From Deltaproteobacteria bacterium TL4 (GTDB taxonomy: Bacteria > SAR324 > NAC60-12): a DNA stretch of 22,520 nucleotides. Numbering within the stretch: the stretch's first letter is position 1; the number at the start of each line of letters is the position of its first letter. The position numbers and the translations under genes were made by a program. Shown piece by piece: positions 1 through 22,520 of this stretch. Below the pieces are notes generated by a model, which did not search any database, was not told where the DNA came from, and worked only from the letters and a program-made list of their open reading frames with translations. The stretch lies in NCBI GenBank assembly GCA_051382335.1, contig JBBCAX010000437.1, forward strand, positions 1-22,520, in the 5' to 3' direction.

Positions 1-162
1 GATGACGAACAATCCGCCAAAGAAGAAGGTGGTGGCGAAGGCGACAAAAAAGAAGGTGGAAAAGAAGGCGGGAAAAGCGAAAAGAAAGAAAAGACCACCG
101 CAAAATCCGCCGCAGCAGGCGACATTGCCCACATTGAGCAGGTGACTTTTAGAAAAAAATAA
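1..162 (+). pseudogene. Partial, probably IS-truncated host gene; low-complexity G/E/K-rich segment, product unknown
   Basis: Frame 1 is open from the window edge (DDEQSAKEEGGGEGDKKEGGKEGGKSEKKEKTTAKSAAAGDI). It runs into the IS end at 128 and stops at TAA 160-162 inside the IS. Confidence 0.55.
128..144 (+). repeat. IS left terminal inverted repeat
   Basis: cccacattgagcaggtg; exact reverse complement at 1788-1804 and identical copy at 21576-21592. Confidence 0.92.
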
Positions 163-206
163 TTTAGATTTCCTTCATGAATTCACTGAAATCTGGAAGG
201 AGTCGT

Positions 207-1664
207 ATGGAAATTGAGATAAGTCGTTTGGATCATCATGGAGTAGTGGCGGGAGTGATCAAAGATTTGGGTTTGATCGAGCCTATTGATCGGTTACTCG
301 GAGTGCATGAGCAATCGGAGATCAGCCATGAGGAAGCCATTGCCGGGATGATACTCAATGGGTTGGGTTTTACGGATCGTCCGCTGTCCCTGAGTCCTCA
401 GTTTTTTGAAAACAAGGCTCTGGATATTCTGTTTCGAGAAGGAATAGAAGCCTCGTATTTCAATCGGTTCAAGCTGGGTCGGAGCCTGGATCAGGTTTAT
501 GATTACGGCTGTGAACGTCTTTTTGGAGAATTGTCGGTATCGGTCTGTCGTCAAGAGAAGGTGGACACTCGTTTTAATTGTGAAGACACCACGAGTTTTT
601 CATTGACGGGGGAGTATCTGGAAGATGAAGACAGTCACGCTATCTTGATCACTCACGGCTATTCGAAAGATCATCGTCCGGATCTCAAGCAGATGGTTCT
701 GGAAATGATGGTATCCCAGGATGGTGGAGTTCCCCTGTTAATGAAATGTTGGAGTGGAAACAGCGAGGACACGACGATCTTTCAACAACGAGCCAAAGCA
801 TTAATCACAGCGTGGAAAGACATGGAGATCCCCCGATATTTTATCACGGACTGCAAGGGTTATACGAAAGAGAATGCACCGAATTTGAAACACCTTCTGT
901 TTATCACGCGGGTCCCTGAAACGCTGACTCTGGCGCAAGATAAGATTGACGAGGCTTTAGCCCTCAATACATGGGAAATCTGGGACGACCGCCGAAAGTA
1001 CCATCGTTTTGAAGTGAATCATTACGATATTGATCAACGTTGGTTGGTGGTCTTTTCTCAACCGGCCATGGAACGGGCTCAACAAACAGTCAAACGGGCG
1101 GTGATCAAAGAAAGTGAGAAGATTTCCACAGCGAACTATCACCTGCAAGCTCAGCGCTTTGAGAGCAAAAACCAGGCGCGCAAGGCTTTGGAAAAACTTC
1201 AAAAGACGTGGAAGTTTCATACCTTGAAGGACAGTACAATCACGGGACATAAGCATTTTCTTCAACAGGGACGCCCCACCAAAGACAGTTCATTTGAGTT
1301 GGAATTCCAGATTCAATTTCAGGTGGAGGAAGACCGTCCTGGTATCGAGCAACGGATTCAACAAAAAGCGTGCTTTATTGTGACCAGTAATGCGACGAAG
1401 GATGAATTGACCGATCTGGAAATATTAGTCGATTATCAAGGACAGGATCATGTAGAAAAAGGCTTTGGTTTTCTCAAAAGTCCGTTGTGCTTTGCCTCGT
1501 CGTTGTTTCTTGACAAACCCCAACGCCTGGAAGGATTGATGATGGTCATGACGTTGGCTCTCCTGGTTTATTCTGTAGCTCAACGGCGTTTGCGAAAGGC
1601 CTTGATTCAGGCAAAGGAGACCCTTCCCAATCAAATCCGGCAACCGATCATCCGCTTTTCTTAA
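207..1664 (+). CDS. IS1634-family DDE transposase (C-terminus possibly degenerate)
   Basis: Family-typical motifs RLDHHGVVAG, MILNGLGF, DTTSFSLTGEY, ITHGYSKDHRPDLKQ, DGGVPL and VEKGFGFLKSP. ATG 207 follows an aaggag RBS; the ORF track starts at 177. Confidence 0.9.
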   Translation: MEIEISRLDHHGVVAGVIKDLGLIEPIDRLLGVHEQSEISHEEAIAGMILNGLGFTDRPLSLSPQFFENKALDILFREGIEASYFNRFKLGRSLDQVYDYGCERLFGELSVSVCRQEKVDTRFNCEDTTSFSLTGEYLEDEDSHAILITHGYSKDHRPDLKQMVLEMMVSQDGGVPLLMKCWSGNSEDTTIFQQRAKALITAWKDMEIPRYFITDCKGYTKENAPNLKHLLFITRVPETLTLAQDKIDEALALNTWEIWDDRRKYHRFEVNHYDIDQRWLVVFSQPAMERAQQTVKRAVIKESEKISTANYHLQAQRFESKNQARKALEKLQKTWKFHTLKDSTITGHKHFLQQGRPTKDSSFELEFQIQFQVEEDRPGIEQRIQQKACFIVTSNATKDELTDLEILVDYQGQDHVEKGFGFLKSPLCFASSLFLDKPQRLEGLMMVMTLALLVYSVAQRRLRKALIQAKETLPNQIRQPIIRFS

Positions 1665-2664: not shown

Positions 2665-3205
2665 ACGGTTGATTCAATCCTATGGTAAATACATCTCAAT
2701 CCCCTGGAAACTGGATGCTGCCGCTGCCCAACGGGTGATTTTTTGCGTGTATCCGGAAATGGAGGAACTCCGATTACGAGCCAGGATTGATGAATTTGAA
2801 CTTGTCACAAGACAGGCTGGACATGAATGGCTCCTGTTTGATCTGACCGATACCTTTGCCCAATGGCTCTCTCAGGAAGACTATGTGGAAGAATATTTTC
2901 AGGAACCCCAACTTCTGCAAGATTTACTTCCTGAGACGTATTGTGCTTTTCTGACTAAACGGTTTGATCAAAGCCTTCAAAAAGGTTCCATCAACGAACA
3001 AACGGTTGTGGTGTTGATGGGAGTCGGGACTCTTTTTGGGTTTGCCAAGGTCAAAGATCTCATTGATTTGTTTGCTCCCCGCATCAAAGGTCGTCTTTTG
3101 GTTTTGTTCCCTGGGAGTTATGAAAACAACAACTATCGACTTTTAGATGGATACGATGGATGGAATTACCTGGCCGTTCCAATTACTGCGGATAAAGATT
3201 TTTAG
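2651..3205 (+). CDS. brxB: BREX protein BrxB (DUF1788)
   Basis: About 184 aa, with C-terminal GRLLVLFPGSYENNNYRLLDGYDGWNYLAVPI typical of DUF1788; lies upstream of brxC. ATG 2651 overlaps the end of brxA. Confidence 0.85.
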   Translation: MSRVKRLIQSYGKYISIPWKLDAAAAQRVIFCVYPEMEELRLRARIDEFELVTRQAGHEWLLFDLTDTFAQWLSQEDYVEEYFQEPQLLQDLLPETYCAFLTKRFDQSLQKGSINEQTVVVLMGVGTLFGFAKVKDLIDLFAPRIKGRLLVLFPGSYENNNYRLLDGYDGWNYLAVPITADKDF

Positions 3206-3232
3206 TCCACGAACCACACTAAATACACGAAA
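3204..3232 (+). repeat. A-type left arm (3 x ~9 bp) of GxxExxY cassette 1
   Basis: agtccacgaaccacactaaatacacgaaa; 26/29 match to the reverse complement of 3625-3653. Confidence 0.9.
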
Positions 3233-3240
3233 GAGAATGA

Positions 3241-3621
3241 ATGAGTCAGGAAATTTTATATAAAGAAGAGTGCTATCAAATACAGGGTGCTATTTTTGAA
3301 GTGTACAGGGAAATGGGGTGTGGGTTTCTGGAAAGTGTTTACCAGGAATGTCTTGAGAAGGAATTACTTAAACGTGAAATCCCTTTTCTCGCGCAACAGG
3401 AGTTGAAACTTTTCTACAAAGGGGAGGTTTTGAAACAAACTTATAAACCTGACCTGATTTGCTTTGATAAGATCATTGTAGAATTGAAGGCTCTCAGTCA
3501 AGTCACAGGAGACCATAGAGCCCAAGTACTGAATTATCTGAAAGCAACCCGTTTGAGCCTCGGTTTGCTTGTCAATTTTGGACATTATCCGAAAGCAACG
3601 GTAGAAAGGTTGGTCTTATAA
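3241..3621 (+). CDS. GxxExxY protein 1 (PD-(D/E)XK-like nuclease fold)
   Basis: 126 aa; GFLESVY motif, PDL...IVELKA, and QVLNYLKAT..LGLLVNFG. Confidence 0.92.
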   Translation: MSQEILYKEECYQIQGAIFEVYREMGCGFLESVYQECLEKELLKREIPFLAQQELKLFYKGEVLKQTYKPDLICFDKIIVELKALSQVTGDHRAQVLNYLKATRLSLGLLVNFGHYPKATVERLVL

Positions 3622-3624
3622 TTT

Positions 3625-3653
3625 TTTCGTGTGTTTCGTGTGTTTCGTGGACT
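3625..3653 (-). repeat. A-type right arm of GxxExxY cassette 1
   Basis: tttcgtgtgtttcgtgtgtttcgtggact, starting 4 nt after the stop codon. Confidence 0.9.
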
Positions 3654-3671: not shown

Positions 3672-6600
3672 ATGAACAATCGTGATATTTACCTGAAAGA
3701 TCCTACCCTCCGGAAATTGGTCAATGAAGGGGTGGCGAGTGTGAATGACCTGAATGAACATGTCCTGCGCTACGAGTTGGAGACGTTTGTCTGTAGTGGC
3801 CAATATCAAAAGGGAATTTCCCACATCCTGCGTACTTACATGGATAATATTCGGGCTTCCCAACAGCCTGGAGTCTGGGTGAGTGGATTTTATGGTTCCG
3901 GTAAATCTCACCTGGTGAAAATGCTTTCGGCGTTATGGACAGACTATCACTTTGAAGATGGAGCCAAAGCCAGAGGCATTGCCATGCTTCCTCAGGATGT
4001 CCGCGACCTGTTGGTGGAACTGGAGAAGGAAGGCAAACGGCATGGAGGTCTTCATAGTATTTCAGGAACCTTGAAAGCCAATGATGACAGTAATAGTGTT
4101 CGTTCCGCGATTTTGGCGATGGTTTTCAAATCCATCGGACTTCCCGCCAAATATCATCTGGCTTCCTTTGTGATGTGGTTGCAGGAAGAAGGTCTTCTGA
4201 AGGAAGTCCGCCAGATTGTGGAAGGCAAGGGCAAAGCCTGGGAGGAGGAAATTACCCGGCTTCATGTTTCCAAAATCATTCGTGAGGCACTCGTCCAATT
4301 AAAACCCCAGATCTTTTTTGATGAAAGAAGTTGTGCGGAAATCCTCAGGAACCAGTTCCCCTCCGGCAAGGATGTTTCCAGTGATGATATGCTCAAGGCC
4401 ATGCGGTTGGCTTTAACCCGAAATGGGAAACTGCCTCTCACCTTGATGGTGCTGGATGAAGTCCAGCAATACATTGGGGAAGACAGCCAGCGATCCATTG
4501 ATGTTCAGGAAGCGGTGGAAGCCTGCTGCAAGAATCTGGGTAGCAAAATCCTCTTTATCGGAACGGGACAAACGGCTGTTACCGGAACCAGTAACCTTAA
4601 AAAACTGGAAGGGCGTTTCACCATTCGAGTCGAACTTTCAGATACCGATGTGGATTCCGTAATTCGTCAGGTGATTCTGGCTAAAAAACCTGAAGCCAAG
4701 GAGCCCATTGAAACCATAATGCAAACCAATCTGGGCGAAATTTCCCGTCATCTTTCAGGAACAACCCTGGGACACCGGCAAGAGGACATCGCCTGGTTTC
4801 CTCAGGATTATCCGATTTTGCCCGTTCGTCGTCGCTTTTGGGAAAACACCCTGCGGGTGCTTGACAGAACGGGAACGGATAGCCAACTCAGAAATCAACT
4901 CAGCATGATTCATAAGGTGATCCAGACCAACCTGAACGCACCCTTGGGTCAGGTGATTCCTGCGGATTATCTTTATTTTGATTCAGCGGAAAAGCTCCTG
5001 CAGTCTCGCATTTTACCCCGCAAGGTCTATGAAAAAACTATGAGCTGGATCAAAGGTTCTGAAGCAGAGCAACTCATGGCTAGAGCCTGTGGTCTGGTGT
5101 TTCTGATCAATAAGCTGAGTGGCAGTAATACCGAAATCGGCATCCGTTGCACCATCCATTCTTTGGCAGACCTGATGGTTGAAAATCTGGCGAGTGGTTC
5201 CGGTTCTTTGAGAGCCAAACTCCCTGCCCTTCTGGATCAATGCGAACTGCTGATGAAGGTGGGAGAGGAATACCGTATTCAGACAGAGGAGAGTTCTGCC
5301 TGGAATGATGAGTTTCTCAGTCAACGGTCGATTTTGGCGAATGAAACCCATCGCATCGAATCAGAACGGGATGATCGTATTCGTAAAAAGTTTGGGGAGA
5401 TTGTCAAAAATCTATCTCTGACGCAGGGAACCTCCAAGGTCACCCGCACCCTCTTTCCCCATTTTGATGCCCAGTTGCCAACGGATGCGGATAAAAAAAT
5501 CTACGTCTGGGTTCGGGATGGGTGGCATATTGATGAAAATTCAGTCCGGATTGATGCCCGTCAGGCGGGGAATCAATCCCCCACCGTGTTTATCTTCATT
5601 CCCAAGCGCTCGGCGGATGATCTGAGGCATCACCTGATTGATTACAAGGCAGCCATTGCCACCCTCGATAAACGGGGAGTTCCTAATACCCCTGAAGGGA
5701 TTGAAGCACGTTCGGCTATGGAAACTACCCGGCAGACGGCTGAAACCAAAATTCGTGAATTGCTGGAGGAGTCTTTTTCAGGAGCGCGTGTGTTCCAAGG
5801 GGGCGGCAATGAGATTCCGGGAGATCATTTGCAGGAGATGGTGCTGGATGCCGCTAATAACTCGCTTCAGCGACTGTATCCCAATTTCTATTGGGCGGAT
5901 CATTTGGGTTGGGCAAAAGTTTATGAAAAGGCTCAGAAAGGAGCCCCGGATGCCTTGAAAGCGGTGGGCGATGAAGGGGAGCCTGCCAAAAATCCCATTT
6001 GTAAAGCCATCCTCGGGTTTATCTCAGGCGGAAAAAGAGGAACCGACATCCGAAATGGGTTTGAAGGAGAAACTTACGGTTGGTCACGGGATGCTGTCGA
6101 TGGGGCGCTTCAGGTGCTGCTGGTTGCAGGAATCCTCCGTGCTCAGGACGAACGTGGACAAACGGTCGATCCCAAAGAACTGGAGCGTAAATCTATCGGC
6201 AAAACGACCTTCAAGGTAGAATCCACTACCCTTACTACCATTCAGAGGATTGCTATCCGAAAATTGCTCCAGAAGGCAGGTCTGCAACCTCAGCAGGGAG
6301 AAGAGTTGGTCTCTGTCCCAAGATTCCTGCAAAAGATGCTGGATCTTGCTGAACAGGCAGGAGGGGAAGCTCCCCAACCCCTCCGTCCTGATAGTTCGCT
6401 TCTGGAAGAAATTCGCTTGCTTTCCGGAAATGAACAACTCCTGGCGGTGTATAATAATCGGGAACCCCTGGCTCAGTTTTTTGACGCCTGGACCCATCTG
6501 GCAGAACGTATTCAACAACGTTGGACGAACTGGATCATCCTTCAAAAATTGCTGAAGCATGTGAGTCAAGAACAGCCACTAGAAGAATTAGAGTCCACCA

Positions 6601-7214
6601 AACACACGAACGACACGAAAAACAAGATTGACAAGAAACAGCCCTTAGCTTCCCTTATTCGCGTTCATTCGCGTTCATTCGCGGTTCCAGACATGCAAAT
6701 CCTCTTCACGCGAATTCAAACCCTGGAACAACAACGTCAATTATTGGCGGAACCGGATTGGATCATCCCTTTGGTCAATAACCTCTCACAACTTCTGAGG
6801 GAGGAACTGAATCGGTTTCATCAGCAGTATACCCAACTCCATCAACAGGGCATGACCCGACTTCATACGGATGGAAATTGGCAAAAGCTGGAACCTGAAC
6901 AACGCAATCAACTCCTCCAGGAACAAAAACTGACGCTCTCCGATGCTCCTGTGATTCAGGTGTCCAACACCCAGGAAATTCTGAATACCCTGGAAAAAAT
7001 CTCGTTGAGCGCCCTCTCCGACCGCATCGCCGCCATGAATTCCCGCTTTGAGGCGGTTTTAACCGGAGCGGCAGAACTGATGGAACCCAAAGCCCAATTT
7101 ATAAAACTCCCAGGTCGAACCCTCAAAACCAGCGCTGAGATGGATTCCTGGCTCAATGAAGTGAAACAACAACTCCTGACAGCCCTGCAACAGGGACCTG
7201 TCGTGATACGATAA
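3672..7214 (+). CDS. brxC: BREX P-loop ATPase BrxC
   Basis: 1180 aa; RYELETFVC, Walker A GVWVSGFYGSGKSH, Walker B LMVLDEVQQY; operon position. Confidence 0.92.
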   Translation: MNNRDIYLKDPTLRKLVNEGVASVNDLNEHVLRYELETFVCSGQYQKGISHILRTYMDNIRASQQPGVWVSGFYGSGKSHLVKMLSALWTDYHFEDGAKARGIAMLPQDVRDLLVELEKEGKRHGGLHSISGTLKANDDSNSVRSAILAMVFKSIGLPAKYHLASFVMWLQEEGLLKEVRQIVEGKGKAWEEEITRLHVSKIIREALVQLKPQIFFDERSCAEILRNQFPSGKDVSSDDMLKAMRLALTRNGKLPLTLMVLDEVQQYIGEDSQRSIDVQEAVEACCKNLGSKILFIGTGQTAVTGTSNLKKLEGRFTIRVELSDTDVDSVIRQVILAKKPEAKEPIETIMQTNLGEISRHLSGTTLGHRQEDIAWFPQDYPILPVRRRFWENTLRVLDRTGTDSQLRNQLSMIHKVIQTNLNAPLGQVIPADYLYFDSAEKLLQSRILPRKVYEKTMSWIKGSEAEQLMARACGLVFLINKLSGSNTEIGIRCTIHSLADLMVENLASGSGSLRAKLPALLDQCELLMKVGEEYRIQTEESSAWNDEFLSQRSILANETHRIESERDDRIRKKFGEIVKNLSLTQGTSKVTRTLFPHFDAQLPTDADKKIYVWVRDGWHIDENSVRIDARQAGNQSPTVFIFIPKRSADDLRHHLIDYKAAIATLDKRGVPNTPEGIEARSAMETTRQTAETKIRELLEESFSGARVFQGGGNEIPGDHLQEMVLDAANNSLQRLYPNFYWADHLGWAKVYEKAQKGAPDALKAVGDEGEPAKNPICKAILGFISGGKRGTDIRNGFEGETYGWSRDAVDGALQVLLVAGILRAQDERGQTVDPKELERKSIGKTTFKVESTTLTTIQRIAIRKLLQKAGLQPQQGEELVSVPRFLQKMLDLAEQAGGEAPQPLRPDSSLLEEIRLLSGNEQLLAVYNNREPLAQFFDAWTHLAERIQQRWTNWIILQKLLKHVSQEQPLEELESTKHTNDTKNKIDKKQPLASLIRVHSRSFAVPDMQILFTRIQTLEQQRQLLAEPDWIIPLVNNLSQLLREELNRFHQQYTQLHQQGMTRLHTDGNWQKLEPEQRNQLLQEQKLTLSDAPVIQVSNTQEILNTLEKISLSALSDRIAAMNSRFEAVLTGAAELMEPKAQFIKLPGRTLKTSAEMDSWLNEVKQQLLTALQQGPVVIR
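6592..6686 (+). repeat. In-frame hybrid repeat insertion in brxC: A-left arm (6592-6620) + spacer + B-right arm (6657-6686)
   Basis: agtccaccaaacacacgaacgacacgaaa ... attcgcgttcattcgcgttcattcgcggtt, translated as STKHTNDTK...IRVHSRSFAV. Confidence 0.88.
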
Positions 7215-8541: not shown

Positions 8542-9002
8542 ACTCGATCTGTCTGTTGGACACCACGGTCTTTGTAGAGATTCTCAATGTACCCCAGAAG
8601 GCGAATCAGCATGCTCGTATCATTGAATCGCTGGAACAGAAAATAAAAGATAATGAATCTTTGTTTTTGCCTATGGCGACTATCCTCGAAACTGGGAATC
8701 ATATTGGTCAAAACGGAAACGGCAACCAGCGTCGTGACTGTGCAAAGCGTTTTGTTGAGCAGGTCACTCAAGCTATGGAGGGGAAATCCCCCTTTAAGCC
8801 CATTAGCTTTTTAACTCATGAAGCTATGAAAAAATGGTTGGCTGAATTTCCTGATCATGCGAGTCGTGGCAGTGGGTTGGGTGATCTCTCGATTATTCAT
8901 GACTGGAAGCGTCTTTGTGATCAAAATCCTCGTCGTCGTGTCTATATCTGGACACTGGATGAACATCTTGCCAGCTATGATAAACCTACAGGAGAACCCT
9001 GA
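8538..9002 (+). CDS. PIN-domain-like protein
   Basis: 154 aa with PIN-type acidic motifs LLDTTV, ILET, GLGDLSI and WTLDEHL; ATGA overlap with the upstream ATPase. Confidence 0.7.
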   Translation: MNSICLLDTTVFVEILNVPQKANQHARIIESLEQKIKDNESLFLPMATILETGNHIGQNGNGNQRRDCAKRFVEQVTQAMEGKSPFKPISFLTHEAMKKWLAEFPDHASRGSGLGDLSIIHDWKRLCDQNPRRRVYIWTLDEHLASYDKPTGEP

Positions 9003-12000
9003 TGCAACCCCTCGAAAAATCCCTTCGGAACAAACTGGAAAAGACCATCAAGGAGGCTCGTGAAATCTCGGAAGCAGCGGCAAAGGCTGCTCTGGAACAA
9101 CTGGGCGTCGGCGAAGCCAATCCCTTCCCTCATCTTGCGGAGAAGGAACGGGAACTCCGGAGGCAGTTGCGCATTCATGGGCGGCAGTTGGGCGATGTCC
9201 GTCATGCTCAAACCGAAGTGCAGGAACTTGACCGGCTGATTGAAGAAGTCGCTTATGAACACTGGCATCGAATCCTCTTTGCCCGGTTTCTCGCTGAAAA
9301 CAAACTGTTGATGTATCTCGAAGAAAAACCGCAAATAAACGCAAATGGACGCAAATTGAATGAAAACCTTATTAGCGTTCCTTCGCGTTCATTTGCGGTT
9401 GAAGATGCTGTAGCAGTGACGTTGGAAGAATGTGAGGATCTGGCGGTTGAGGAAGGTCTGAAAAACGGCTGGGAGATGGCATCCCGTCTTGCGTCCAGAA
9501 TGCTGCCCCAGGTTTTCCGGATTGATTCGGTGGTGTTTGCCCTCCAGTTTCCTCCAGAGCATCAACAAAAGCTCGAACGCCTGGGTTCCGAGTTGCCACG
9601 GGAGGTTTTTACGGCTTCGGATTCCTTGGGCTGGGTGTATCAATTCTGGCAGGCTAAAAAGAAGGATGAGGTCAACGCTTCTGAAGTCAAAATCGGAGCA
9701 CGAGAACTGCCTGCCGTCACCCAACTCTTCACGGAACCCTACATGGTCAGCTTTCTGCTCGATAATGCCCTGGGAGCCTGGTGGGCTTCCCGTCGGCTAA
9801 GTCTGGAGGTTATCAAACAAGTGTCCGCAGAATCCACAGAAAGCACGGAAATAGAAAAGGAACTAAGGAAAAGGTCTGCAATCCCTGGGGTTCCTCTCGA
9901 CTATCTGCGTTTTGTTCCTTCTTCCGTGTCTTCTGTGTCTTCTGTGTCTTCCGTGGACCTAAAATGGACTCCCGCCGCAGGCTCCTTTGACCATTGGCCC
10001 AAGCATCTGAGTGAATTCAAAGTCCTTGATCCGTGTTGTGGTTCGGGACATTTCCTGGTGGCAGCCTTTTTGATGCTGGTTCCCATGCGGATGGAACTGG
10101 AAAACCTGTCTGCACGGGATGCGGTAGATCGGGTGTTGTCTGAAAACCTGCATGGACTGGAACTCGATCAACGCTGTGTGGAACTGGCGGCTTTTGCGTT
10201 GGCGTTGACCGCCTGGAAATATCCAAATCTCCCCTCGCCCTCTGGGAGAGGGGCTGGGGGTGAGGGGCCGATAGGCTATCGGAAATTACCGGAATTGCAT
10301 CTGGCGTGTTCGGGGCTTTCGGTCAGTGTTGCCAAGGAAGAATGGAAAAAATTTGGGTTGAATCAACACAATCTGCGGATTGCGCTTGGTGATATGTACG
10401 ATGTGTTTCAGGAGGCTCCGGTTTTAGGCAGCCTGCTGAATCCCCAAAAAATCAAACTTCCCGATCAGGTGAACTGGAAATCCCTCTCCCTCTCTCTGGA
10501 ACAAGCGCTCTCCCAGGAAAAAACCGCCGAAGTTCATGAAGTGGGAGTGGTTGCCCAGGGATTGGTGAAAACGACACAACTTCTCCAACAAAAGTACCAC
10601 TGGGTGATCACGAATGTCCCCTACCTTAATCGAGGCAAACAGAACGATATTTTGAAAGATTTTTGTGAAAAACATTACCCTGAAGCCAAGACGGACCTGG
10701 CAACCGTCTTTCTTCAACGCTGCCTGGAATTGACCTCATCCCCCGTCCCCCTCTCCATCAATAGAGAGGGGGGGCTGGGAGGGACAGTCTCGGTGGTGCT
10801 GCCCCAAAACTGGCTCTTCCTCACCTCCTATAAAAAATTTCGTGAAAAATTACTCTGCAACGATCTCTGGCATCTCATTGCCAGGCTGGGACCCGGTGCT
10901 TTTGAAACCATTAGTGGGGAAGTCGTTAAAGCGATTCTGATCACCCTGAGTCGGGGAAATAAAGAGTCCACGAAACACACCCAACACACGAAAAACAAGG
11001 AACTGGATTTGTTTGATTTAGAAACCTCATCCCTAAATCCCCTCTCCATCAATGGAGAAGGGACTTTATCAACCTCATCCCTAAATCCCTTCTCCATGAA
11101 TGGAGAAGGGACTTCCAGCAAATTCTCCCCCTCGCCAGTTATGGAGAGGGGGGCGGGGGGTGAGGTCATTGCCGGTCTGGATGTCTCTGAACCCCGCACC
11201 ACCTCCGAAAAAGCATCCTTGTTGCAAACTGCTGCCATCAAACAGGTGGAGCAAGCCAAACAATTGGAAAATCCGGATGCACGGGTGGCCTTTGATGAAA
11301 TCCAAGGAGATTTACTTGAAAACTTTTCAAGTTCATATCAGGGAATAAAAACAGGAGATGACTCGGCTAAACGACGTTTTTTTTGGGAACAGGAGAATAA
11401 GAATCGGTGGTTACTTTTTTTAAGCACGGTTGATAACACCGTTGATTTTGGGGGATTTGAATCAGTTATTGATTGGTCGAAAAAGGGGAGTGATATGGCT
11501 CGTCTTCAAGGCGTTGGTGGTTGGGGACAGTATGGTATTCTAGTGAGTCAAATGAGACATTTACCAGTTTCACTTTTTAATGGGAGTAAATTTGACAGTA
11601 ACGTTTCTGCATTACCAGTCAGCAACCCCGCCCATATCCCTGCCATCTGGTGTTTCTGTTCCTCCCCAGAATACAACGAAGCTGTGCGGCAGATTGACCA
11701 AAGCCTGAAAGTTACCAATGCCACGTTGGTCAAAGTTCCCTTTGACCTGGAACACTGGAGCAAGGTAGCAGAAGAAAAATATCCTCATGGACTGCCGAAG
11801 CCCTATTCCGATGATCCCACTCAATGGATATTTCATGGGCATCCGGGCGGGTCGGTGGTGTGGAATGAAACCACGAAGAAACTGGAAGTCGCTCCGACCT
11901 TACGAACGGATGACACGGTGTTGCAGGTGGCGGTGGCGAGATTGCTGGGGTATCGCTGGCCTGCGGAATTAGAGTTAGAGTCCACGAAACACACAAAATA

Positions 12001-12898
12001 CACGAAAGAAATAAATGAAAACCTGATTGGCGTTCATTCGCGTTCATTTGCGGTTAATAACACATTGGAACTTTCTGAAGAATCTCGTTTTTGGGTCAAA
12101 CAATGCGAGGAACTAATATCATTTGTGGATGAAGATGGCATTGTGTGTATCCCTCCAGTTCGGGGAGAGGCCGCAGCGGCGGATCGGTTGATCAATCTCC
12201 TCGCTAAAGCTCATGCTCAACATTCTTCTGGATCAGAGGGAGCCTTTCTTTCCTGGACGGAAACCCTCTTAAAAAACTCCGATCACGCTGGAAAATCCCT
12301 GGAAACCTGGTTGCGTGACAAGTTCTTCCTCCAGCACTGCAAACGGTTCCAGCACCGTCCGTTTATCTGGCAAATCTGGGATGGTCTGAGGGATGGATTT
12401 TCCGCGCTGGTGAATTATCACAAACTGGATCACAAACTGCTGGAAACCCTGATTTACACCTATCTGGGCGACTGGATCACCCGTCAGAACGATGACCTCA
12501 AAAGCGGTGTGGATGGCGCTCAGGAAAAGCTGGCGGCTGCGGAACAACTCAAGAAAAAACTGGAAGCGATTCTGGAGGGTGAAGCACCCCTGGATATTTT
12601 TGTCCGCTGGAAACCCTTGTCCCAACAACCCCTTGGCTGGAATCCTGACCTCAACGATGGCGTGCGCCTCAACATCCGCCCCTTCATGACCGCCGGAGTC
12701 CTGCGCTTTAACAAAAAACCCCAACTCAACATTACCTGGGACAAAGACCGTGGCAAAGATGTCGAATCCGCTCCCTGGTTTCATCGCTTCCAGGGCGACC
12801 GCATCAATGACCATCATCTATCTCTGTCTGAAAAATTAAAAGCAAAGGAGTCCACGGAACACACAGAAAACACGGAAAACAGGATAAAAAATGGATAA
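9002..12898 (+). CDS. pglX: BREX adenine DNA methyltransferase PglX (BrxX)
   Basis: 1298 aa; LGWVYQFW, PAVTQLFTEPY, motif I VLDPCCGSGHFL, motif IV ITNVPY, and C-terminal DLNDGVRLNIRPF. Confidence 0.92.
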   Translation: MQPLEKSLRNKLEKTIKEAREISEAAAKAALEQLGVGEANPFPHLAEKERELRRQLRIHGRQLGDVRHAQTEVQELDRLIEEVAYEHWHRILFARFLAENKLLMYLEEKPQINANGRKLNENLISVPSRSFAVEDAVAVTLEECEDLAVEEGLKNGWEMASRLASRMLPQVFRIDSVVFALQFPPEHQQKLERLGSELPREVFTASDSLGWVYQFWQAKKKDEVNASEVKIGARELPAVTQLFTEPYMVSFLLDNALGAWWASRRLSLEVIKQVSAESTESTEIEKELRKRSAIPGVPLDYLRFVPSSVSSVSSVSSVDLKWTPAAGSFDHWPKHLSEFKVLDPCCGSGHFLVAAFLMLVPMRMELENLSARDAVDRVLSENLHGLELDQRCVELAAFALALTAWKYPNLPSPSGRGAGGEGPIGYRKLPELHLACSGLSVSVAKEEWKKFGLNQHNLRIALGDMYDVFQEAPVLGSLLNPQKIKLPDQVNWKSLSLSLEQALSQEKTAEVHEVGVVAQGLVKTTQLLQQKYHWVITNVPYLNRGKQNDILKDFCEKHYPEAKTDLATVFLQRCLELTSSPVPLSINREGGLGGTVSVVLPQNWLFLTSYKKFREKLLCNDLWHLIARLGPGAFETISGEVVKAILITLSRGNKESTKHTQHTKNKELDLFDLETSSLNPLSINGEGTLSTSSLNPFSMNGEGTSSKFSPSPVMERGAGGEVIAGLDVSEPRTTSEKASLLQTAAIKQVEQAKQLENPDARVAFDEIQGDLLENFSSSYQGIKTGDDSAKRRFFWEQENKNRWLLFLSTVDNTVDFGGFESVIDWSKKGSDMARLQGVGGWGQYGILVSQMRHLPVSLFNGSKFDSNVSALPVSNPAHIPAIWCFCSSPEYNEAVRQIDQSLKVTNATLVKVPFDLEHWSKVAEEKYPHGLPKPYSDDPTQWIFHGHPGGSVVWNETTKKLEVAPTLRTDDTVLQVAVARLLGYRWPAELELESTKHTKYTKEINENLIGVHSRSFAVNNTLELSEESRFWVKQCEELISFVDEDGIVCIPPVRGEAAAADRLINLLAKAHAQHSSGSEGAFLSWTETLLKNSDHAGKSLETWLRDKFFLQHCKRFQHRPFIWQIWDGLRDGFSALVNYHKLDHKLLETLIYTYLGDWITRQNDDLKSGVDGAQEKLAAAEQLKKKLEAILEGEAPLDIFVRWKPLSQQPLGWNPDLNDGVRLNIRPFMTAGVLRFNKKPQLNITWDKDRGKDVESAPWFHRFQGDRINDHHLSLSEKLKAKESTEHTENTENRIKNG
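9327..9400. repeat. Empty B-type hairpin in pglX (B-left 9327-9356, 14-nt loop, B-right 9371-9400)
   Basis: aaccgcaaataaacgcaaatggacgcaaat / attagcgttccttcgcgttcatttgcggtt; arms 25/30 complementary; the left arm is 29/30 identical to 18344-18373. Confidence 0.9.
9823..9958. repeat. C-type (A-related) inverted arms in pglX (9823-9850 and 9922-9958)
   Basis: gtccgcagaatccacagaaagcacggaa ... ttccgtgtcttctgtgtcttctgtgtcttccgtggac; translated SAESTESTE and SVSSVSSVSSVD. Confidence 0.82.
10229..10266 (-). repeat. GC-rich REP-like palindrome (D family) in frame in pglX
   Basis: ctcccctcgccctctgggagaggggctgggggtgaggg with stem cccctcgccc/gggagagggg; translated LPSPSGRGAGGEG. Confidence 0.85.
10733..10773 (+). 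repeat. GC-rich REP-like palindrome (D family) in frame in pglX
   Basis: acctcatcccccgtccccctctccatcaatagagagggggg; translated TSSPVPLSINREGG. Confidence 0.82.
10965..10993 (+). repeat. Solo A-left arm in pglX
   Basis: agtccacgaaacacacccaacacacgaaa; translated STKHTQHTK. Confidence 0.88.
11023..11166. repeat. Cluster of three D-family palindromes in pglX: two direct 44-bp copies (11023-11066, 11071-11114) and one inverted copy (11125-11166)
   Basis: aacctcatccctaaatccc(c/t)tctccat(c/g)aatggagaagggactt twice, then ctccccctcgccagttatggagaggggggcggggggtgaggt. Confidence 0.88.
11979..12055 (+). repeat. In-frame hybrid repeat insertion in pglX: A-left (11979-12007) + B-right (12026-12055)
   Basis: agtccacgaaacacacaaaatacacgaaa ... 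attggcgttcattcgcgttcatttgcggtt; translated STKHTKYTK...IGVHSRSFAV. Confidence 0.88.
12850..12878 (+). repeat. C-type left arm of GxxExxY cassette 2 (within the last codons of pglX)
   Basis: gtccacggaacacacagaaaacacggaaa; 25/29 match to the reverse complement of 13293-13321. Confidence 0.88.
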
Positions 12899-13289
12899 GC
12901 TTCCTTCAGAGGATAACAAACTGCTCTTTGAAAAAGAAACGTATGCCCTCCGTGGTGCTGTGTTTGAAGTCTATAGAGAGATGGGGTGTGGCTTTTTGGA
13001 AGCCGTCTATCAGGAATGTCTGGTGAAGGAGTTGACTCGACTGGGTATTCCTTTTGTAGCTCAACAGGAGTTAACGCTCACTTATAAAGGAGAGGCCTTG
13101 AAGCAAACCTACAAACCCGATTTTATTTGTTATAATGCGATTGTAGTGGAACTCAAAGCCTTGTCTGCAACAACAGGTGAGCATAAAGCTCAGGTTCTCA
13201 ATTATCTAAAAGCCACTGGAATGAAGGTTGGACTTTTAGTGAATTTTGGAAGTTATCCCAAAGCTACGGTAGAAAGGTTGGTTTTATGA
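12891..13289 (+). CDS. GxxExxY protein 2
   Basis: 132 aa; GFLEAVY, PDFIC..IVVELKA; close paralogue of 3241-3621 (shares FEVYREMGCGFLE, AQVLNYLKAT, YPKATVERLVL). Confidence 0.92.
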   Translation: MDKLPSEDNKLLFEKETYALRGAVFEVYREMGCGFLEAVYQECLVKELTRLGIPFVAQQELTLTYKGEALKQTYKPDFICYNAIVVELKALSATTGEHKAQVLNYLKATGMKVGLLVNFGSYPKATVERLVL

Positions 13290-13292
13290 TTA

Positions 13293-13321
13293 TTTCAGTG
13301 TTTTCAGTGTTTTCAGTGGAC
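13293..13321 (-). repeat. C-type right arm of GxxExxY cassette 2
   Basis: tttcagtgttttcagtgttttcagtggac, starting 4 nt after the stop codon. Confidence 0.9.
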
Positions 13322-14421: not shown

Positions 14422-15923
14422 AGCAACAGGAAATCATAGAACTTATCGCTCAGGGGGAAAATTCCAGTGTGGAATTCAAACGGGATGATCTTCGACCGGA
14501 GCAATTGGCTAAAGAGGTTGTGGCGATGGCGAATTTGCAAGGGGGCGTCATTCTTCTTGGAGTGGAGGATGACGGGTCCGTGAGTGGGATAAGCCGCAAA
14601 AATCTGGAGGAATGGGTCATGGATACGGTCTTTGGACGCTACATTCATCCAGCCATCATTCCACACTATCAGGAACTCCAATGGAGGGAGGGGCAACGAA
14701 TCGCCCTTATTTCCATTTCTACCGGTACCTCCAAGCCTTACGTGGTCAGACATAATGATCGTGAGGATATTTATGTGAGGATGGGTTCCGTTACACGACT
14801 TGCGACGCGTGAACAGGCACTTCGGTTGTTTGGTTCCGGGGGATTGTTACACACGGAAACCCTGCCTGTTTCTGGTTCCTCTTTCAAACATTTGGACCCA
14901 GTCCGTATTGAGAATTATCTGCGAGATATTTTACAGGAGCAGGATATGCCGGAATCTGAAGCACAATGGGTGGATCGACTCGTGGGACTGGGGTTTTTGA
15001 CCACCGATGCCATGGGGCAAACGGTCTGCACGATAGCAGGGATGGCTTTGTTTGGGATTCGTCCCAGAAGATGGTTGCCTCAAGCGGGTTTGAGAGTCGT
15101 GGTTTTTGATGTGGCTGACAAGCAATATCAGGCGCTCCTGGATGTTGTTCTGGATGGACCGATGGTGGGACGGTGGCATCTTGAAAAAGAAAAACTCAAA
15201 ACATTGGTCGATGATGGACTGGTTGAGAAGTTTATCCGGGCTATCGAGCCCTTTGTTACGGTGGAAGATAACCAGATTGATCAGAATTTTAGAAAGGAAA
15301 AGCGCTGGCTTTATCCGATGGATGCCATTCGTGAAACCGTCTTGAATGCCTTGGCGCATCGGGATTGGACCCGGTCGGTGGATATTGAAATTACCCGTTA
15401 TAGTGATCGGCTGGAAATCATCAGTCCGGGAGCCTTACCGAATTCGATGACTTTGGAAAAAATGAAGGCTGGACGGAGAACTCCCCGTAATCCCATCCTT
15501 ATGGACGTCCTGAGGGATTATGGTTATGTTGAGGCTCGGGGGATGGGAGTTCGTACCAAGGTCATTCCATTGACGCGGCAGTTCACAGGCTCGGAACCTC
15601 TGTTTGAAGCGACCGAGGATTACTTGAAGACGGTCATTGCGGTGGGAACGCCTTCCCCTTCTGTCCCTAAAAAAGAAAAAACGTCCCTGAAAAACGTCCC
15701 TGAAACCCAGGTTTCTTCAAAAAACGTCCCTAAAAATGAGTTTCAGAGACATTTACTGTCCCTGATCAGGGACAATCCCCACCTCACTTATGAGGAATTA
15801 TCCGCTCAGACGCAGTGCAACCGCAAAAAGGTTCAACGTCACCTGAACGCACTCAAGGATTCCGGATTTTTACGCAGGGAAGGCTCGCCCAAGGGAGGGC
15901 ATTGGGAGGTGTTGGAGTTATGA
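14418..15923 (+). CDS. Schlafen/AlbA_2 domain + RecG-C/HATPase_c_4-like domain + C-terminal HTH protein
   Basis: N-terminal GENSSVEFK...AMANLQGGVILLGVEDDG; ETVLNALAHRDW, EIISPGAL, PRNPIL, EARGMG; HTH TYEELSAQ...RREGSPKGGHWEV. ATG 14418 chosen for its ATGA overlap. Confidence 0.85.
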   Translation: MKQQEIIELIAQGENSSVEFKRDDLRPEQLAKEVVAMANLQGGVILLGVEDDGSVSGISRKNLEEWVMDTVFGRYIHPAIIPHYQELQWREGQRIALISISTGTSKPYVVRHNDREDIYVRMGSVTRLATREQALRLFGSGGLLHTETLPVSGSSFKHLDPVRIENYLRDILQEQDMPESEAQWVDRLVGLGFLTTDAMGQTVCTIAGMALFGIRPRRWLPQAGLRVVVFDVADKQYQALLDVVLDGPMVGRWHLEKEKLKTLVDDGLVEKFIRAIEPFVTVEDNQIDQNFRKEKRWLYPMDAIRETVLNALAHRDWTRSVDIEITRYSDRLEIISPGALPNSMTLEKMKAGRRTPRNPILMDVLRDYGYVEARGMGVRTKVIPLTRQFTGSEPLFEATEDYLKTVIAVGTPSPSVPKKEKTSLKNVPETQVSSKNVPKNEFQRHLLSLIRDNPHLTYEELSAQTQCNRKKVQRHLNALKDSGFLRREGSPKGGHWEVLEL

Positions 15924-18355
15924 AAGTGATGGAACACCTCAAGAAAGCGATACGAGATGCTGCGATTTATAACCCTGAAGTCCAGGTAGCTCCTGCCTGT
16001 ATTCTCTGGACAGATCATGACCGACAATGGGAACCCGTGATTCCAAGGCTTCAAATGGAGATGCCGGAATTACTGGTCTTGGGAAACTATAATCCTGAAA
16101 AGCGGACAGGTCCCGCAATCTGGTTACGGTGTGTGCTAGAGGGAAAATTTGTCCACGAAACACACGAACAACACGAAAAAAATAAAAAAATTGAACAACC
16201 GCAAATGGACACAGATGGACGCAAATCAAGTGAAACCAATATTCGCATTGATTCGCATTCATTCGAGGTTCCCATTCTTTACTTACCCGGTGTGAGTCGG
16301 CAGGCTTTGAGAGCGGTTGAAAATTGTCCGGAGTTTCTGAAGCCCTTGGCGGAGTTGCAATACCGTGGAGTGATTTGGTCACAGGTCAATGCCAAAGACT
16401 GGACGGTGATGGCTTTTCTGAAATCCGATCAGGGTGGGTTGGGACTGGATGTCTCCCAGGATAATGATACCCGAAATTCCATGTTGTTGGCTTTAACCGC
16501 CTTGTTGGATGAAAAGGTGACTCATCTCAAAGGAAAACATCTGGATCGGGACTATTTCAATGAGTTGTTGACTGGAGGCGATCCTGTGAAGGATTTGCTC
16601 CAATGGATGGATCAGGAAGAGGCTTTTCAGAAAGGACGGAGTTCCAATGAATGGAAAGCTTTTGTGGAGTTATGCAAATCCAAATTTGCCTTTAATCCTG
16701 TCCAGGAGGGGATTTTGACAGGTGTCTCCAGACTGGCGACGCATGAAGGAGCCTGGAAAGCCGTGTGGGAACGGTTTTGTGAAGCACCTGCCCGGTATTC
16801 CAACATTCCCTCTAAAATGCGTAAGGCATCCATGCCTCCACAGGATCTGTTTTCTGATGAAAGCACCCACGGAGGTTGGCCTCAGTGGAATGACATTCAG
16901 GAAAAAAATCTTCGCCAGGACTTACTGGAGTTGAATAAGATGCCACCTCATGAAGCCCGAAAAAAAATATTGGAGCTGGAAAAAAAGCACTCTCGCAGAC
17001 GGACTTTGGTATGGGCAGAACTGGGAGAATCTCCACTGGTTTTGACTTTAGCACATTTGGCTGTATTGGCAGAAACGACGCAATATAGTCTGACTGCCGG
17101 GACTCTTGAAGACCTGGTTTCGAGTTATTCCACTCAGGGCTGGAAATCCGATGATGCGGTACTGAGTGCTTTGGCTGAAATAGAGCCTGCGGACTTTGAA
17201 ATCATTGTAGCGGTATTGCGTGCGGTTTATCTCCCTTGGGCTGAAGAATCTGCAAGGTATCTGCAGAAAATCTGGAACCCTGAAGGGCCATGCAAAAGAT
17301 CCCATCCTCCTGGAACCCCTGAATGTATTTTGTTTGTGGATGGATTACGGTTTGATTGCGCCAAGCGCCTGTCCGCTATCCTTGAAAAAAAGGGGATCAC
17401 GATTCAGGAAAAAATCTGTTGGGCGGCTCTGCCCAGTGTAACAGGGACCGGTAAACCCGCAGTGGTTCCTCTAGGGTTATCCTCCAGCGTTGCGGAAGAA
17501 GCAGAATCTCAGGATTTTCAGGTGATGACCTCGTATCAGTTTGACAAAGCCATGAACGATTCGGGTTGGTTGATCCTCCGTTCCAAAGACCCCATTCCTG
17601 CCCCTGTTCAGTCCACGGGTTCTGGCTATTTAAACAATTCCATTGTTAATAAACTATGGGTTGAGTTTGGTAATATTGACCATGAAGGGCATGATCGTGG
17701 ATGGAAACTGGCTAAACACCTGGAGGGGTTGCTGGAGGAGATCAGTGACCGGATCCAAATGCTCCTGTCTTCAGGTTGGAAAACAGTTCGGGTGGTTACC
17801 GATCATGGTTGGTTACTCTTGCCGGGTGGACTTCCCAAAGGGGAGTTATCCAATGCCTTGGTAGAAAGTAAATGGGGACGTTGTGCATCCTTGAAAAAGG
17901 GCGTCCATAGTGAAGAAAAACTCTATCCCTGGTATTGGAATCCGATCCAGCATTTTGCTTTGGCAGAGGGGATAAGCTGCTTCCGTAAGGGAGAGGAATA
18001 CACTCATGGGGGATTGAGTCTGCAAGAATGTGTAACCCTTGAATTGGTGGTTTCTGAAGAAAAACGGCAGCAATCCATTTCTCTGGAATTTACCGATGTT
18101 GTATGGAAAGGAATGCGTTGCACCGTAGCCCTTACCGAGAATTTTGAGGGATTATCCCTGGATATTCGTAAGCAACCTGGAAATCCGGAGTCCAGTGTGG
18201 TTGTGGGAGTTAAACCCATAAAGGAAAATGGAACCGCCTCGGTGGTGGTTGAAAATGAAGACTTGCAGGGGCAAGAGGTGACTTTGGTTCTCATGGATGC
18301 AAAGGGAAGTTTGGTAGCACAGATTGCCACAGTAGTAGGAGAAAACCGCAAATGA
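15920..18355 (+). CDS. pglZ: BREX phosphatase PglZ (type B)
   Basis: PACILWTD, RTGPAIWLRC, and alkaline-phosphatase-superfamily motifs FVDGLRFD, ALPSVTGTGKPAV, IDHEGH, VVTDHGW, YTHGGLSLQE. ATG 15920 has an ATGA overlap and ggag RBS. Confidence 0.92.
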   Translation: MKVMEHLKKAIRDAAIYNPEVQVAPACILWTDHDRQWEPVIPRLQMEMPELLVLGNYNPEKRTGPAIWLRCVLEGKFVHETHEQHEKNKKIEQPQMDTDGRKSSETNIRIDSHSFEVPILYLPGVSRQALRAVENCPEFLKPLAELQYRGVIWSQVNAKDWTVMAFLKSDQGGLGLDVSQDNDTRNSMLLALTALLDEKVTHLKGKHLDRDYFNELLTGGDPVKDLLQWMDQEEAFQKGRSSNEWKAFVELCKSKFAFNPVQEGILTGVSRLATHEGAWKAVWERFCEAPARYSNIPSKMRKASMPPQDLFSDESTHGGWPQWNDIQEKNLRQDLLELNKMPPHEARKKILELEKKHSRRRTLVWAELGESPLVLTLAHLAVLAETTQYSLTAGTLEDLVSSYSTQGWKSDDAVLSALAEIEPADFEIIVAVLRAVYLPWAEESARYLQKIWNPEGPCKRSHPPGTPECILFVDGLRFDCAKRLSAILEKKGITIQEKICWAALPSVTGTGKPAVVPLGLSSSVAEEAESQDFQVMTSYQFDKAMNDSGWLILRSKDPIPAPVQSTGSGYLNNSIVNKLWVEFGNIDHEGHDRGWKLAKHLEGLLEEISDRIQMLLSSGWKTVRVVTDHGWLLLPGGLPKGELSNALVESKWGRCASLKKGVHSEEKLYPWYWNPIQHFALAEGISCFRKGEEYTHGGLSLQECVTLELVVSEEKRQQSISLEFTDVVWKGMRCTVALTENFEGLSLDIRKQPGNPESSVVVGVKPIKENGTASVVVENEDLQGQEVTLVLMDAKGSLVAQIATVVGENRK
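16151..16270 (+). repeat. In-frame compound insertion in pglZ: A-left (16151-16178) + B-left (16197-16226) + 14-nt loop + B-right (16241-16270)
   Basis: gtccacgaaacacacgaacaacacgaaa; aaccgcaaatggacacagatggacgcaaat; attcgcattgattcgcattcattcgaggtt. Confidence 0.87.
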
Positions 18356-18373
18356 ACGCAAATGGACGCAAAT
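18344..18373 (+). repeat. B-type left arm (3 x 10 bp) of GxxExxY cassette 3
   Basis: aaccgcaaatgaacgcaaatggacgcaaat; 26/30 match to the reverse complement of 18762-18791; contains the pglZ stop and the GxxExxY start (ATGA 18352-18355). Confidence 0.9.
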
Positions 18374-18753
18374 ATGTTGAAAGTGATTTGGTTTATCGTG
18401 TTGCCGGTTGTGCCATGGCGGTGTTGAATGAGTTGGGTCATGGATTAAGAGAGAAAACCTATGAACGTGCATTATGCGTTGAATTCAGACATCAGGGTGT
18501 TTCCTATAAACAACAGCAGGTTTACCCGGTCTACTACCGAGATGAACATGTGGATGACTACATTCCTGACCTGGAGGTTGAAAGTCGGTTGATTATTGAG
18601 ATTAAAACGGTTGAGAAGATTATTGATGAACATATCGGTCAGGTTCTGAATTATTTACGGATCACGGGACATGAGGCAGGTGTCATCATGAACTTTAAAC
18701 ATGCCAAACTTGAATGGAAAAAAGTTGTTTTACAGGAAAGCCGGAATCCATGA
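18352..18753 (+). CDS. GxxExxY protein 3 (divergent clade)
   Basis: 133 aa; GLREKTY motif, IPDLEV..IIEIK, QVLNYLRITG...IMNF. Confidence 0.92.
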   Translation: MNANGRKYVESDLVYRVAGCAMAVLNELGHGLREKTYERALCVEFRHQGVSYKQQQVYPVYYRDEHVDDYIPDLEVESRLIIEIKTVEKIIDEHIGQVLNYLRITGHEAGVIMNFKHAKLEWKKVVLQESRNP

Positions 18754-18761
18754 TTTTTTTA

Positions 18762-18791
18762 ATTTGCGTTTATTTGCGTCTATTTGCGGTT
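18762..18791 (-). repeat. B-type right arm of GxxExxY cassette 3
   Basis: atttgcgtttatttgcgtctatttgcggtt. Confidence 0.9.
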
Positions 18792-21494: not shown

Positions 21495-21575
21495 GATTTT
21501 TTTGATGAACTGGATCAACTGCGATTGTTATAGCAGATCACCTTCTTTATATTTATGAACAAGGAGAGCTAAGAG

Positions 21576-22354
21576 CCCACATTGAGCAGGTGACTTTTAG
21601 AAAAAAATAATTTAGATTTCCTTCATGAATTCACTGAAATCTGGAAGGAGTCGTATGGAAATTGAGATAAGTCGTTTGGATCATCATGGAGTAGTGGCGG
21701 GAGTGTCAAAGATTTGGGTTTGATCGAGCCTATTGATCGGTTACTCGGAGTGCATGAGCAATCGGAGATCAGCCATGGGGAAGCCATTGCCGGGATGATA
21801 CTCAATGGGTTGGGTTTTACGGATCGTCCGCTGTCCCTGAGTCCTCAGTTTTTTGAAAACAAGGCTCTGGATATTCTGTTTCGAGAAGGAATAGAAGCCT
21901 CGTATTTCAATCGGTTCAAGCTGGGTCGGAGCCTGGATCAGGTTTATGATTACGGCTGTGAACGTCTTTTTGGAGAATTGTCGGTATCGGTCTGTCGTCA
22001 AGAGAAGGTGGACACTCGTTTTAATTGTGAAGACACCACGAGTTTTTCATTGACGGGGGAGTATCTGGAAGATGAAGACAGTCACGCTATCTTGATCACT
22101 CACGGCTATTCGAAAGATCATCGTCCGGATCTCAAGCAGATGGTTCTGGAAATGATGGTATCCCAGGATGGTGGAGTTCCCCTGTTAATGAAATGTTGGA
22201 GTGGAAACAGCGAGGACACGACGATCTTTCAACAACGAGCCAAAGCATTAATCACAGCGTGGAAAGACATGGAGATCCCCCGATATTTTATCACGGACTG
22301 CAAGGGTTATACGAAAGAGAATGCACCGAATTTGAAACACCTTCTGTTTATCAC
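21576..22354 (+). mobile_element. Truncated second copy of the IS1634-family element
   Basis: Direct repeat of 128-907. Differences seen: a 1-bp deletion after 21705 and A>G at 21778. No right IR. Confidence 0.93.
21655..22354 (+). pseudogene. IS1634 transposase pseudogene
   Basis: Frameshift (gagtgtcaaa vs gagtgatcaaa) after about 17 codons; homology ends at 22354, before the third catalytic residue. Confidence 0.9.
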
Positions 22355-22520
22355 CCAATCCGCTTTTGCCGCCTCTTTTTGCCAGGAACCCGAGATCATT
22401 AAATCACCAATAACAGGAAACGCTCCAAGGGCTTCCACGAGGGTCGCGCTTTTTCCGGAACGTACCAAAGCCAATACTTCATGTCCTTCTTCAACCAGAC
22501 TACGAAGCACTTCTTTACCA
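22350..22520 (-). pseudogene. Truncated NAD(P)-binding Rossmann protein (epimerase/dehydratase / extended SDR-like), N-terminal part
   Basis: Minus strand reads GKEVLRSLVEEGHEVLALVRS...VIGDL...AAKADWVI and then runs into IS sequence; the start lies beyond the window. Confidence 0.75.

Follow-up and report, generated by a model that had tools for sequence, protein, structure and literature searches.

The described systems closest to the element reported here are the REPINs, for which excision footprints have been shown (PMC3116915), and the Ssn nucleases with their NTS/SRM repeats, which have been shown to cut their own flanking repeats as single-stranded DNA (PMC11893778). Palindromic DNA can also be carried in frame, as by Rickettsia palindromic elements (RPEs) and in-frame MITEs, and then adds a short peptide to host proteins (reviewed in PMC10969869). 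GxxExxY proteins (TIGR04256) form a widespread family. In the literature searched, with supplements and subscription papers outside its scope, neither a functional study of these proteins nor a description of a GxxExxY hairpin-cassette family was found, and the main text of a BREX survey leaves DUF559, GIY, HUH and Vsr unmentioned (PMC12839542). In the BREX locus analysed here, GxxExxY genes lie between inverted arms, and a gene-less pair of such arms is read in frame within pglX. What is new is a fixed orthologous codon at which the arm type changed with the resident cassette.

The window, that is, the whole stretch of 22,520 nucleotides analysed, is a BREX-1-type locus with the gene order brxA-like, brxB, GxxExxY-1, brxC, AAA ATPase, 154-aa ORF, pglX, GxxExxY-2, second AAA ATPase, AlbA/RecG-like, pglZ, GxxExxY-3 and brxL; the brxA-like gene, for which a family match is absent, was named by position and relatives. 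Two IS1634 copies (window 127-1664 and 21575-22520), identical over the compared stretches except for a 1-nt offset, bracket the whole locus in direct orientation like a composite transposon, and arms are absent at both of them. Short direct repeats (family D20) lie near the end of the AlbA/RecG-like gene (window 15676-15754). The cassette cargo belongs to the PDDEXK_3 family (PF13366/TIGR04256), with PD...ExK intact in 3/3 GxxExxY proteins of the window. Each of their genes is flanked by inverted arms composed of three 9-10-nt words, and the fourth GxxExxY copy in the genome likewise lies between inverted arms, of its own type (4/4 in the genome). Elsewhere, a flanking inverted pair scoring at least 12 was found at 21 of 25 GxxExxY loci, as against control medians of 6.5-10.5; all rows of this survey were kept, and two of its loci are from Desulfobulbus alkaliphilus. 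No relatives of GxxExxY-3 were found in viral contigs. The hairpin at 9327-9400, which like a MITE has terminal inverted repeats without coding cargo, belongs to the inverted arms found on either side of GxxExxY nuclease genes but encloses no gene (Table 1); its ends are thus shared with GxxExxY cassettes, not with a DDE or other known transposase element.

Table 1. Cassettes, in-frame arms and host gene features (positions are those of the window).
Feature	Positions	Strand	Remarks
Filled cassette 1: A arms around GxxExxY-1 (3241-3621)	3205-3652	+	between brxB and brxC
In-frame hybrid pair in brxC, A left + B right	6593-6686	+	
pglX/brxX-type adenine methyltransferase, 1298 aa, open frame	9002-12898	+	has Eco57I and N6_Mtase domains; NF033452 E 1e-101, with 341 bits against a cut-off of 500
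PglX loop, residues 106-136, 31 aa	9317-9409	+	9 aa in hairpin-free allele, 2-6 aa in most relatives; low pLDDT between confident elements
Left arm of hairpin, B type	9327-9356	+	three 10-nt words; PglX-frame translation KPQINANGRK; 29/30 vs 18344-18373
Loop of hairpin, 14 nt, A/T-rich	9357-9370	.	in common with sister hairpin loop 12012-12025, unlike cassette 3
Right arm of hairpin, B type	9371-9400	-	translation ISVPSRSFAV; 25/30 complementary to 9327-9356
A-variant left arm and right arm, each in one of two adjacent PglX loops	9823-9958	+	conserved host coding stretch enclosed
Lone in-frame A left arm in pglX	10966-10995	+	
In-frame hybrid pair in pglX, A left + B right	11980-12055	+	loop and right arm = closest sister of 9327-9400 (40/44)
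Filled cassette 2: A-variant arms around GxxExxY-2 (12891-13289)	12850-13321	+	left arm in frame at pglX end
In-frame array in pglZ: A left arm, then decayed B hairpin 16197-16270, 14-nt loop	16151-16270	+	
Filled cassette 3: B arms around GxxExxY-3 (18352-18753)	18344-18791	+	between pglZ and brxL; TIGR04256 E 5e-37; PD...ExK intact

In an alignment of the window PglX with its 120 best full-length homologues, the loop between LMY and VAVTL has 2-8 residues in 116 of 121 proteins, as against 31 in the window protein. A 9-residue hairpin-free allele sharing the downstream WEMA patch is present in P0149, P0151 and P0161, from a second set of 120 shorter homologues, and its comparison with the 31 residues therefore gives a net gain of about 22 residues, in frame. 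On these alignments the hairpin is shown to be an insertion relative to relatives that has kept the reading frame. The motif GAAGA, a candidate target-site duplication, stands 2 nt 5′ of the left arm and immediately 3′ of the right arm, but at the protein level the hairpin-free allele already has E-D and E-N there. In a predicted model of PglX residues 1-500 (mean pLDDT 75.5, pTM 0.66), the insert appears as a loop of low confidence that connects two short strands; pLDDT is below 50 at residues 122-128, and helices flank it at 77-99 and 141-151; the model thus places the in-frame insertion at what appears to be a structurally tolerated site. About a dozen insertion-tolerant loops were mapped in this PglX subtype. 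The methyltransferase motifs at residues 343 and 538 are present; PglX bearing the insert would still work, the added peptide may be a neutral passenger, and the hairpin alone is probably one too. A close homologue of the N-terminal 300 aa of PglX was absent among 40 relatives (one weak match), which fits a horizontally acquired locus, and 7 of 305 plasmid records cover at least 80% of PglX.

Palindrome-coded peptides of other families are also found in PglX-type genes. A second palindrome family, with PSPSGRGAGGEG / SPLNPLSINGEG peptides, is in frame in pglX of the window (10726-11173, PglX residues about 410-422). These peptides bracket in-frame DUF559 domains in P0003, P0006, P0025, P0044, P0055 and P0081, and a DUF559 gene is absent from the window. 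In-frame Y1/RAYT transposase domains with palindrome peptides on either side lie at residues 306-320 of P0004, P0008, P0009, P0087 and P0108, and the same peptides occur empty in other PglX loops. Repeat peptides of the VSGQLS/TDHCTL type are in frame in PglX of the L001 locus (D. alkaliphilus) and in several homologues. The same locus has a small gene with arms of its own between brxC and pglX (L001:5324-5740), whose product we take to be four-helix-bundle-like.

At residue 106 the arm types are B/B in the window, A/A in Desulfobulbus alkaliphilus and B2/B2 in the metagenome locus L002, and each of these three loci holds a filled GxxExxY cassette of the same arm type in its own operon. The L002 cassette was predicted beforehand and then found. 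The sites in pglZ and brxC switch arm type likewise. Of the 31 in-frame arms in the three loci, 26 are nearest to a cassette arm of their own locus, with 2 ties and 3 arms nearer to one elsewhere. Shuffling of arm labels gave a mean of 9.6 and a maximum of 20, the arms within one locus not being independent of each other, and a test at the level of loci allows six permutations only (26, 13, 8, 7, 2, 0), so that it cannot reach significance alone. In an out-of-sample set of 8 other cassettes, 17 of 24 arms are nearer to their own cassette, as against 7 that are not; a single locus contributes 14 of the 17. One hairpin of L002 (2 arms) has no matching cassette within the 10 kb examined, and in the genome G303, which has arms in pglX, the sole GxxExxY gene found is of another arm type and on another contig. 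Where the sequence read from a BREX locus contains no GxxExxY gene, an arm pair is missing too in 12 of 13 cases. By sequence comparison, orthologous loops are thus shown to carry arm types that match their own cassettes, and A-left/B-right hybrids to exist.

Two such hybrids are present in the window, and neither folds (z 0.17 and 0.47). The loop and right arm of the residue-106 hairpin agree at 40/44 positions with 12012-12055 in pglX, at 32/44 with the brxC copy, at 31/44 with the pglZ copy and at 26/44 with cassette 3; the left half of the hairpin follows cassette 3 and the right half follows the sister hairpin in pglX. Arms in general resemble sisters of the same orientation more than their own pairing partners. 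From the hybrids and from the match of loop and right arm to one sister, exchange seems to proceed by single arms rather than by doublets. In three loci, and in three arm types, a conserved part of pglX lies between a left arm in one loop and a right arm in the next (window 9823-9958, L002:5539-5679 and L021:1401-1577).

GxxExxY-type hairpins at residue 106 are present in 3 of 6 carriers of a rare WEM/WEMA allele and in 0 of 229 others scored (6 of 241 PglX proteins could not be scored). Since all three hairpins at the site share this one rare allele, a single origin of the residue-106 hairpin seems indicated. A single clade for the three hairpin-bearing PglX proteins was rejected, as FastTree on 386 N-terminal columns scatters them; they are alike mainly at residues 137-200 and 600-650, and such scatter is expected for a mosaic gene. 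Two generalisations about the arms were rejected as well. Arms are not always read in one frame, the pglZ site using different frames, and they are not BREX-specific, the same design being present at a two-component system in L083 (G498:C5). There, a GxxExxY cassette separates the sensor kinase from its response regulator, and of the 14 arms that match it within 10 kb, several lie in long open frames.

The residue-106 hairpin is probably the outcome of one insertion of an arm pair into a tolerant loop, followed by arm-by-arm rewriting through local recombination. A gene-less pair of GxxExxY-cassette arms would have entered the PglX loop once, would have survived because the frame was kept, and would later have undergone conversion by other arms nearby in the operon, gene conversion between arms of the same orientation being the likely rewriting step. 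The copying might be started by the GxxExxY protein, if it recognises and cuts its own arm type; such cutting is proposed by analogy with the Ssn nucleases. A broader proposal is tentative: GxxExxY proteins may be the PD-(D/E)XK counterpart of Ssn, hairpin nucleases specific for an arm type, which by cutting their own arms overwrite all arms of the operon, including those in BREX protein loops. If so, the in-frame hairpins would keep track of the cassette resident in the locus, and an uncharacterised nuclease family would have ready substrates in its matched protein/arm pairs (A, B, B2).

The foremost alternative is movement of the REPIN/MITE type, by which the whole 74-nt hairpin would be mobile, would have landed independently in each lineage and would have been mobilised in trans by the local cassette. 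We regard this as unlikely. Independent entry does occur at this loop, as unrelated palindrome-coded peptides lie in the residue-106 loop of P0122, P0025 and P0044; that of P0122 is of the kind bracketing Y1-transposase domains in P0004, and those of P0025 and P0044 are of the kind bracketing a GIY-YIG domain in P0025. Also in favour of repeated landing, P0005 and P0010 bear a similar peptide at another PglX loop, a 70-nt span recurs among B-type hairpins elsewhere, and an A-like 107-nt hairpin has 15 near-identical copies dispersed in the genome. The last belongs to an element of about 150 nt in which outer inverted repeats enclose A-like arms and a 49-nt loop (e.g. G000 C33:70970-71120 and C4:9040-9190). 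Its 15 intact pairs are accompanied by many half copies, also dispersed, and it looks like a recent MITE burst carrying GxxExxY-type arms; it has, however, outer inverted repeats of its own, so another mover may explain it. Against landing of whole units, a search of the 6.6-Mb genome at up to 22 mismatches gave the residue-106 hairpin just one relative, which lies in this locus; hybrid A/B pairs and lone arms are incomplete as units, and the three GxxExxY-type inserts sit in one rare allele. B arms at up to 4 mismatches number seven in the genome, all within the window locus; single-arm counts in the genome are unreliable, with 248 matches as against 106 in a reversed control. An exact B-hairpin pattern was found in none of 88 genomes of the source phylum; in the class to which D. 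alkaliphilus belongs, a wider pattern matched 1 of 301 genomes. Rfam gave four sub-threshold matches only, all judged to be chance. The view of the initial annotation, that the hairpin is an empty sister of cassette 3 comparable to REPINs and MITEs, stands as an analogy (shared arms, no cargo, inserted when compared with relatives), but the subtype is confined to one locus and intragenic, unlike REPINs.

The 14-nt loop, to which that annotation gave weight, turned out to be a partial constraint. Among 11 B-type hairpins from other sources, obtained with search patterns that allowed loops of up to 30 nt, spans are 63-80 nt, and the 70-nt span, with its 14-nt loop, is the commonest (4/11, three of the four being from maybe related samples). 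In this genome, however, the 27 short arm pairs span 53-132 nt (107 nt in 15), so a loop fixed at 14 nt was rejected for the family. Four long arm pairs each enclose one of the four GxxExxY genes. In the three BREX loci, 9 of 10 short in-frame pairs span 64-73 nt and one spans 90. A 14-nt loop is typical of the B subtype, with no strict rule.

Less likely again is the collapse of a filled cassette, in which a complete GxxExxY cassette would once have stood at the residue-106 codon and then lost its cargo. Our comparison confirms the reported 29/30 identity of the left arm to the arm preceding GxxExxY-3, the 25/30 pairing across a 14-nt spacer, as against 388 nt in cassette 3, and the 14-nt loop of the pglZ hairpin (16227-16240). 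The left arm moreover shares the frame of the GxxExxY-3 start, reading KPQINANGRK in the hairpin and KPQMNANGRK in the gene, and its sole mismatch (position 9336) turns the start ATG into ATA. The pglZ copy of the left arm retains this ATG. A filled GxxExxY form in frame is possible in principle, since the L002 cassette is open from arm to arm and since a different PglX loop (residues 306-320) occurs both filled and empty, with DUF559 and Y1-transposase cargo and other arm types. However, neither the PF13366 domain nor the GxxExxY motif was found in 240 PglX homologues (the best 120 of 8000 and the best 120 of 913), and the in-frame GxxExxY domain that was suggested for pglX homologues at the equivalent site is present in 0 of 241 PglX proteins and in neither of two collection scans. 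These scans used a pattern of conserved pglX flank followed by arm, which, being exact, misses divergent flanks; the two matches obtained, D. alkaliphilus from the genome collection and L002 from metagenomes, are both empty hairpins, and a weak search for long GxxExxY fusions found none. The stronger form of this reading, that the hairpin is the direct excision product of cassette 3, did not hold up and is very improbable: cassette 3 is intact, the loop is unlike either of its inner ends, the right arm is just 24/30 identical to the cassette 3 right arm, and loop plus right arm (26/44) follow the pglX sister instead. A collapse of older date, since masked by arm rewriting, may nevertheless have taken place.

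It is improbable that the in-frame hairpins are functional control sites, maintained by selection because GxxExxY proteins or RNase III bind or cleave them and so tune or process the BREX message. The arm type does track the local cassette, and RNase III excises ORF-bearing hairpins in 23S rRNA, as described in PMC4990558. The sequence 9327-9400 also folds stably, with -28.9 kcal/mol on the mRNA strand; z was -4.56 (+) and -6.42 (-) for RNA and -3.97 and -6.32 for the two strands as DNA, and on each strand 0 of 200 shuffles were equal or better. Folding of this kind is not general, however, as 3 of 4 in-frame B-containing pairs fold no better than shuffles; the pglZ hairpin has decayed (z -1.52, equalled or bettered by 17 of 200 shuffles). 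Most BREX loci of the subtype have neither arms nor cassettes, arms are closer to same-orientation sisters than to the partners with which they would pair, and the same arms are also read in frame next to a two-component system and a TonB receptor, which are unrelated genes. Excision from an mRNA, moreover, breaks the coding frame unless the ends are re-ligated, which also counts against a control site.

Programmed inversion or phase variation of pglX, with the arms as recombination sites, is extremely improbable, for although pglX is enriched among the predicted programmed-inversion targets in PMC9881135 and alternating + and - arms bracket host coding stretches, no recombinase family was matched by the 15 window proteins scanned, the locus has no second, inverted pglX copy, and flipping a 14-nt loop would change little.

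The value of the hairpin lies in the turnover that it records: defence proteins carry repeat-coded loops that change type at fixed sites. The window and its two relatives provide matched enzyme/sequence pairs together with mismatched controls, and the function of GxxExxY proteins is thereby directly testable.

Compared with known systems, the GxxExxY cassettes resemble Ssn with its NTS/SRM repeats in that a small single-domain nuclease gene is flanked by its own hairpin repeats, in that repeat variants differ between homologues and in that gene-less copies occur elsewhere (PMC11893778). They differ from the Ssn systems described there as follows. First, Ssn is a GIY-YIG nuclease, whereas the GxxExxY cargo is PD-(D/E)XK (PF13366/TIGR04256). 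Second, a single SRM already forms a short palindrome, whereas the triple word of a GxxExxY arm is non-palindromic and needs a second arm for pairing. Third, the NTS of that report rarely lie in genes (2%), whereas the arms here are in frame (PMC11893778). With REPINs the hairpin shares the inverted doublet with a short spacer, of 71 nt in one REPIN class and 70 here, and the tie between type and a nearby gene (PMC3116915). In contrast to REPIN/RAYT systems, the window lacks a RAYT/Y1 transposase (Y1_Tnp, 0 of 15 window proteins), the linked gene being PF13366, and the REPINs of that study are extragenic, number hundreds and are rarely mixed, whereas the B subtype amounts to seven arms in one locus, with hybrids (PMC3116915). 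Like RPEs and in-frame MITEs, the hairpin is in-frame palindromic DNA that adds a short peptide to its host protein; RPEs, however, are about 150 nt long and dispersed, with no partner gene named in the review, whereas the element here has a nuclease-filled form and changes type at a fixed site (PMC10969869). The filled cassettes, like the four-helix-bundle-like gene with its own arms in the D. alkaliphilus locus, recall ORF-bearing intervening sequences (IVSs) of 23S rRNA, with a small ORF inside a long hairpin, but IVSs are in rRNA and are removed by RNase III, whereas the element in the pglX coding frame is predicted to be translated (PMC4990558). ShiLan, in phage methylases, is likewise a selfish, frame-preserving insertion in a DNA methylase that is predicted to loop out, but it hides an HNH gene in another frame and homes, whereas the present insert is 74 nt long and cargo-free (PMC11855218). 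In its behaviour the element is akin to a population of REPINs or SRMs, and in appearance to a coding palindrome, yet it departs from REPIN/RAYT and from Ssn in the features that define them.
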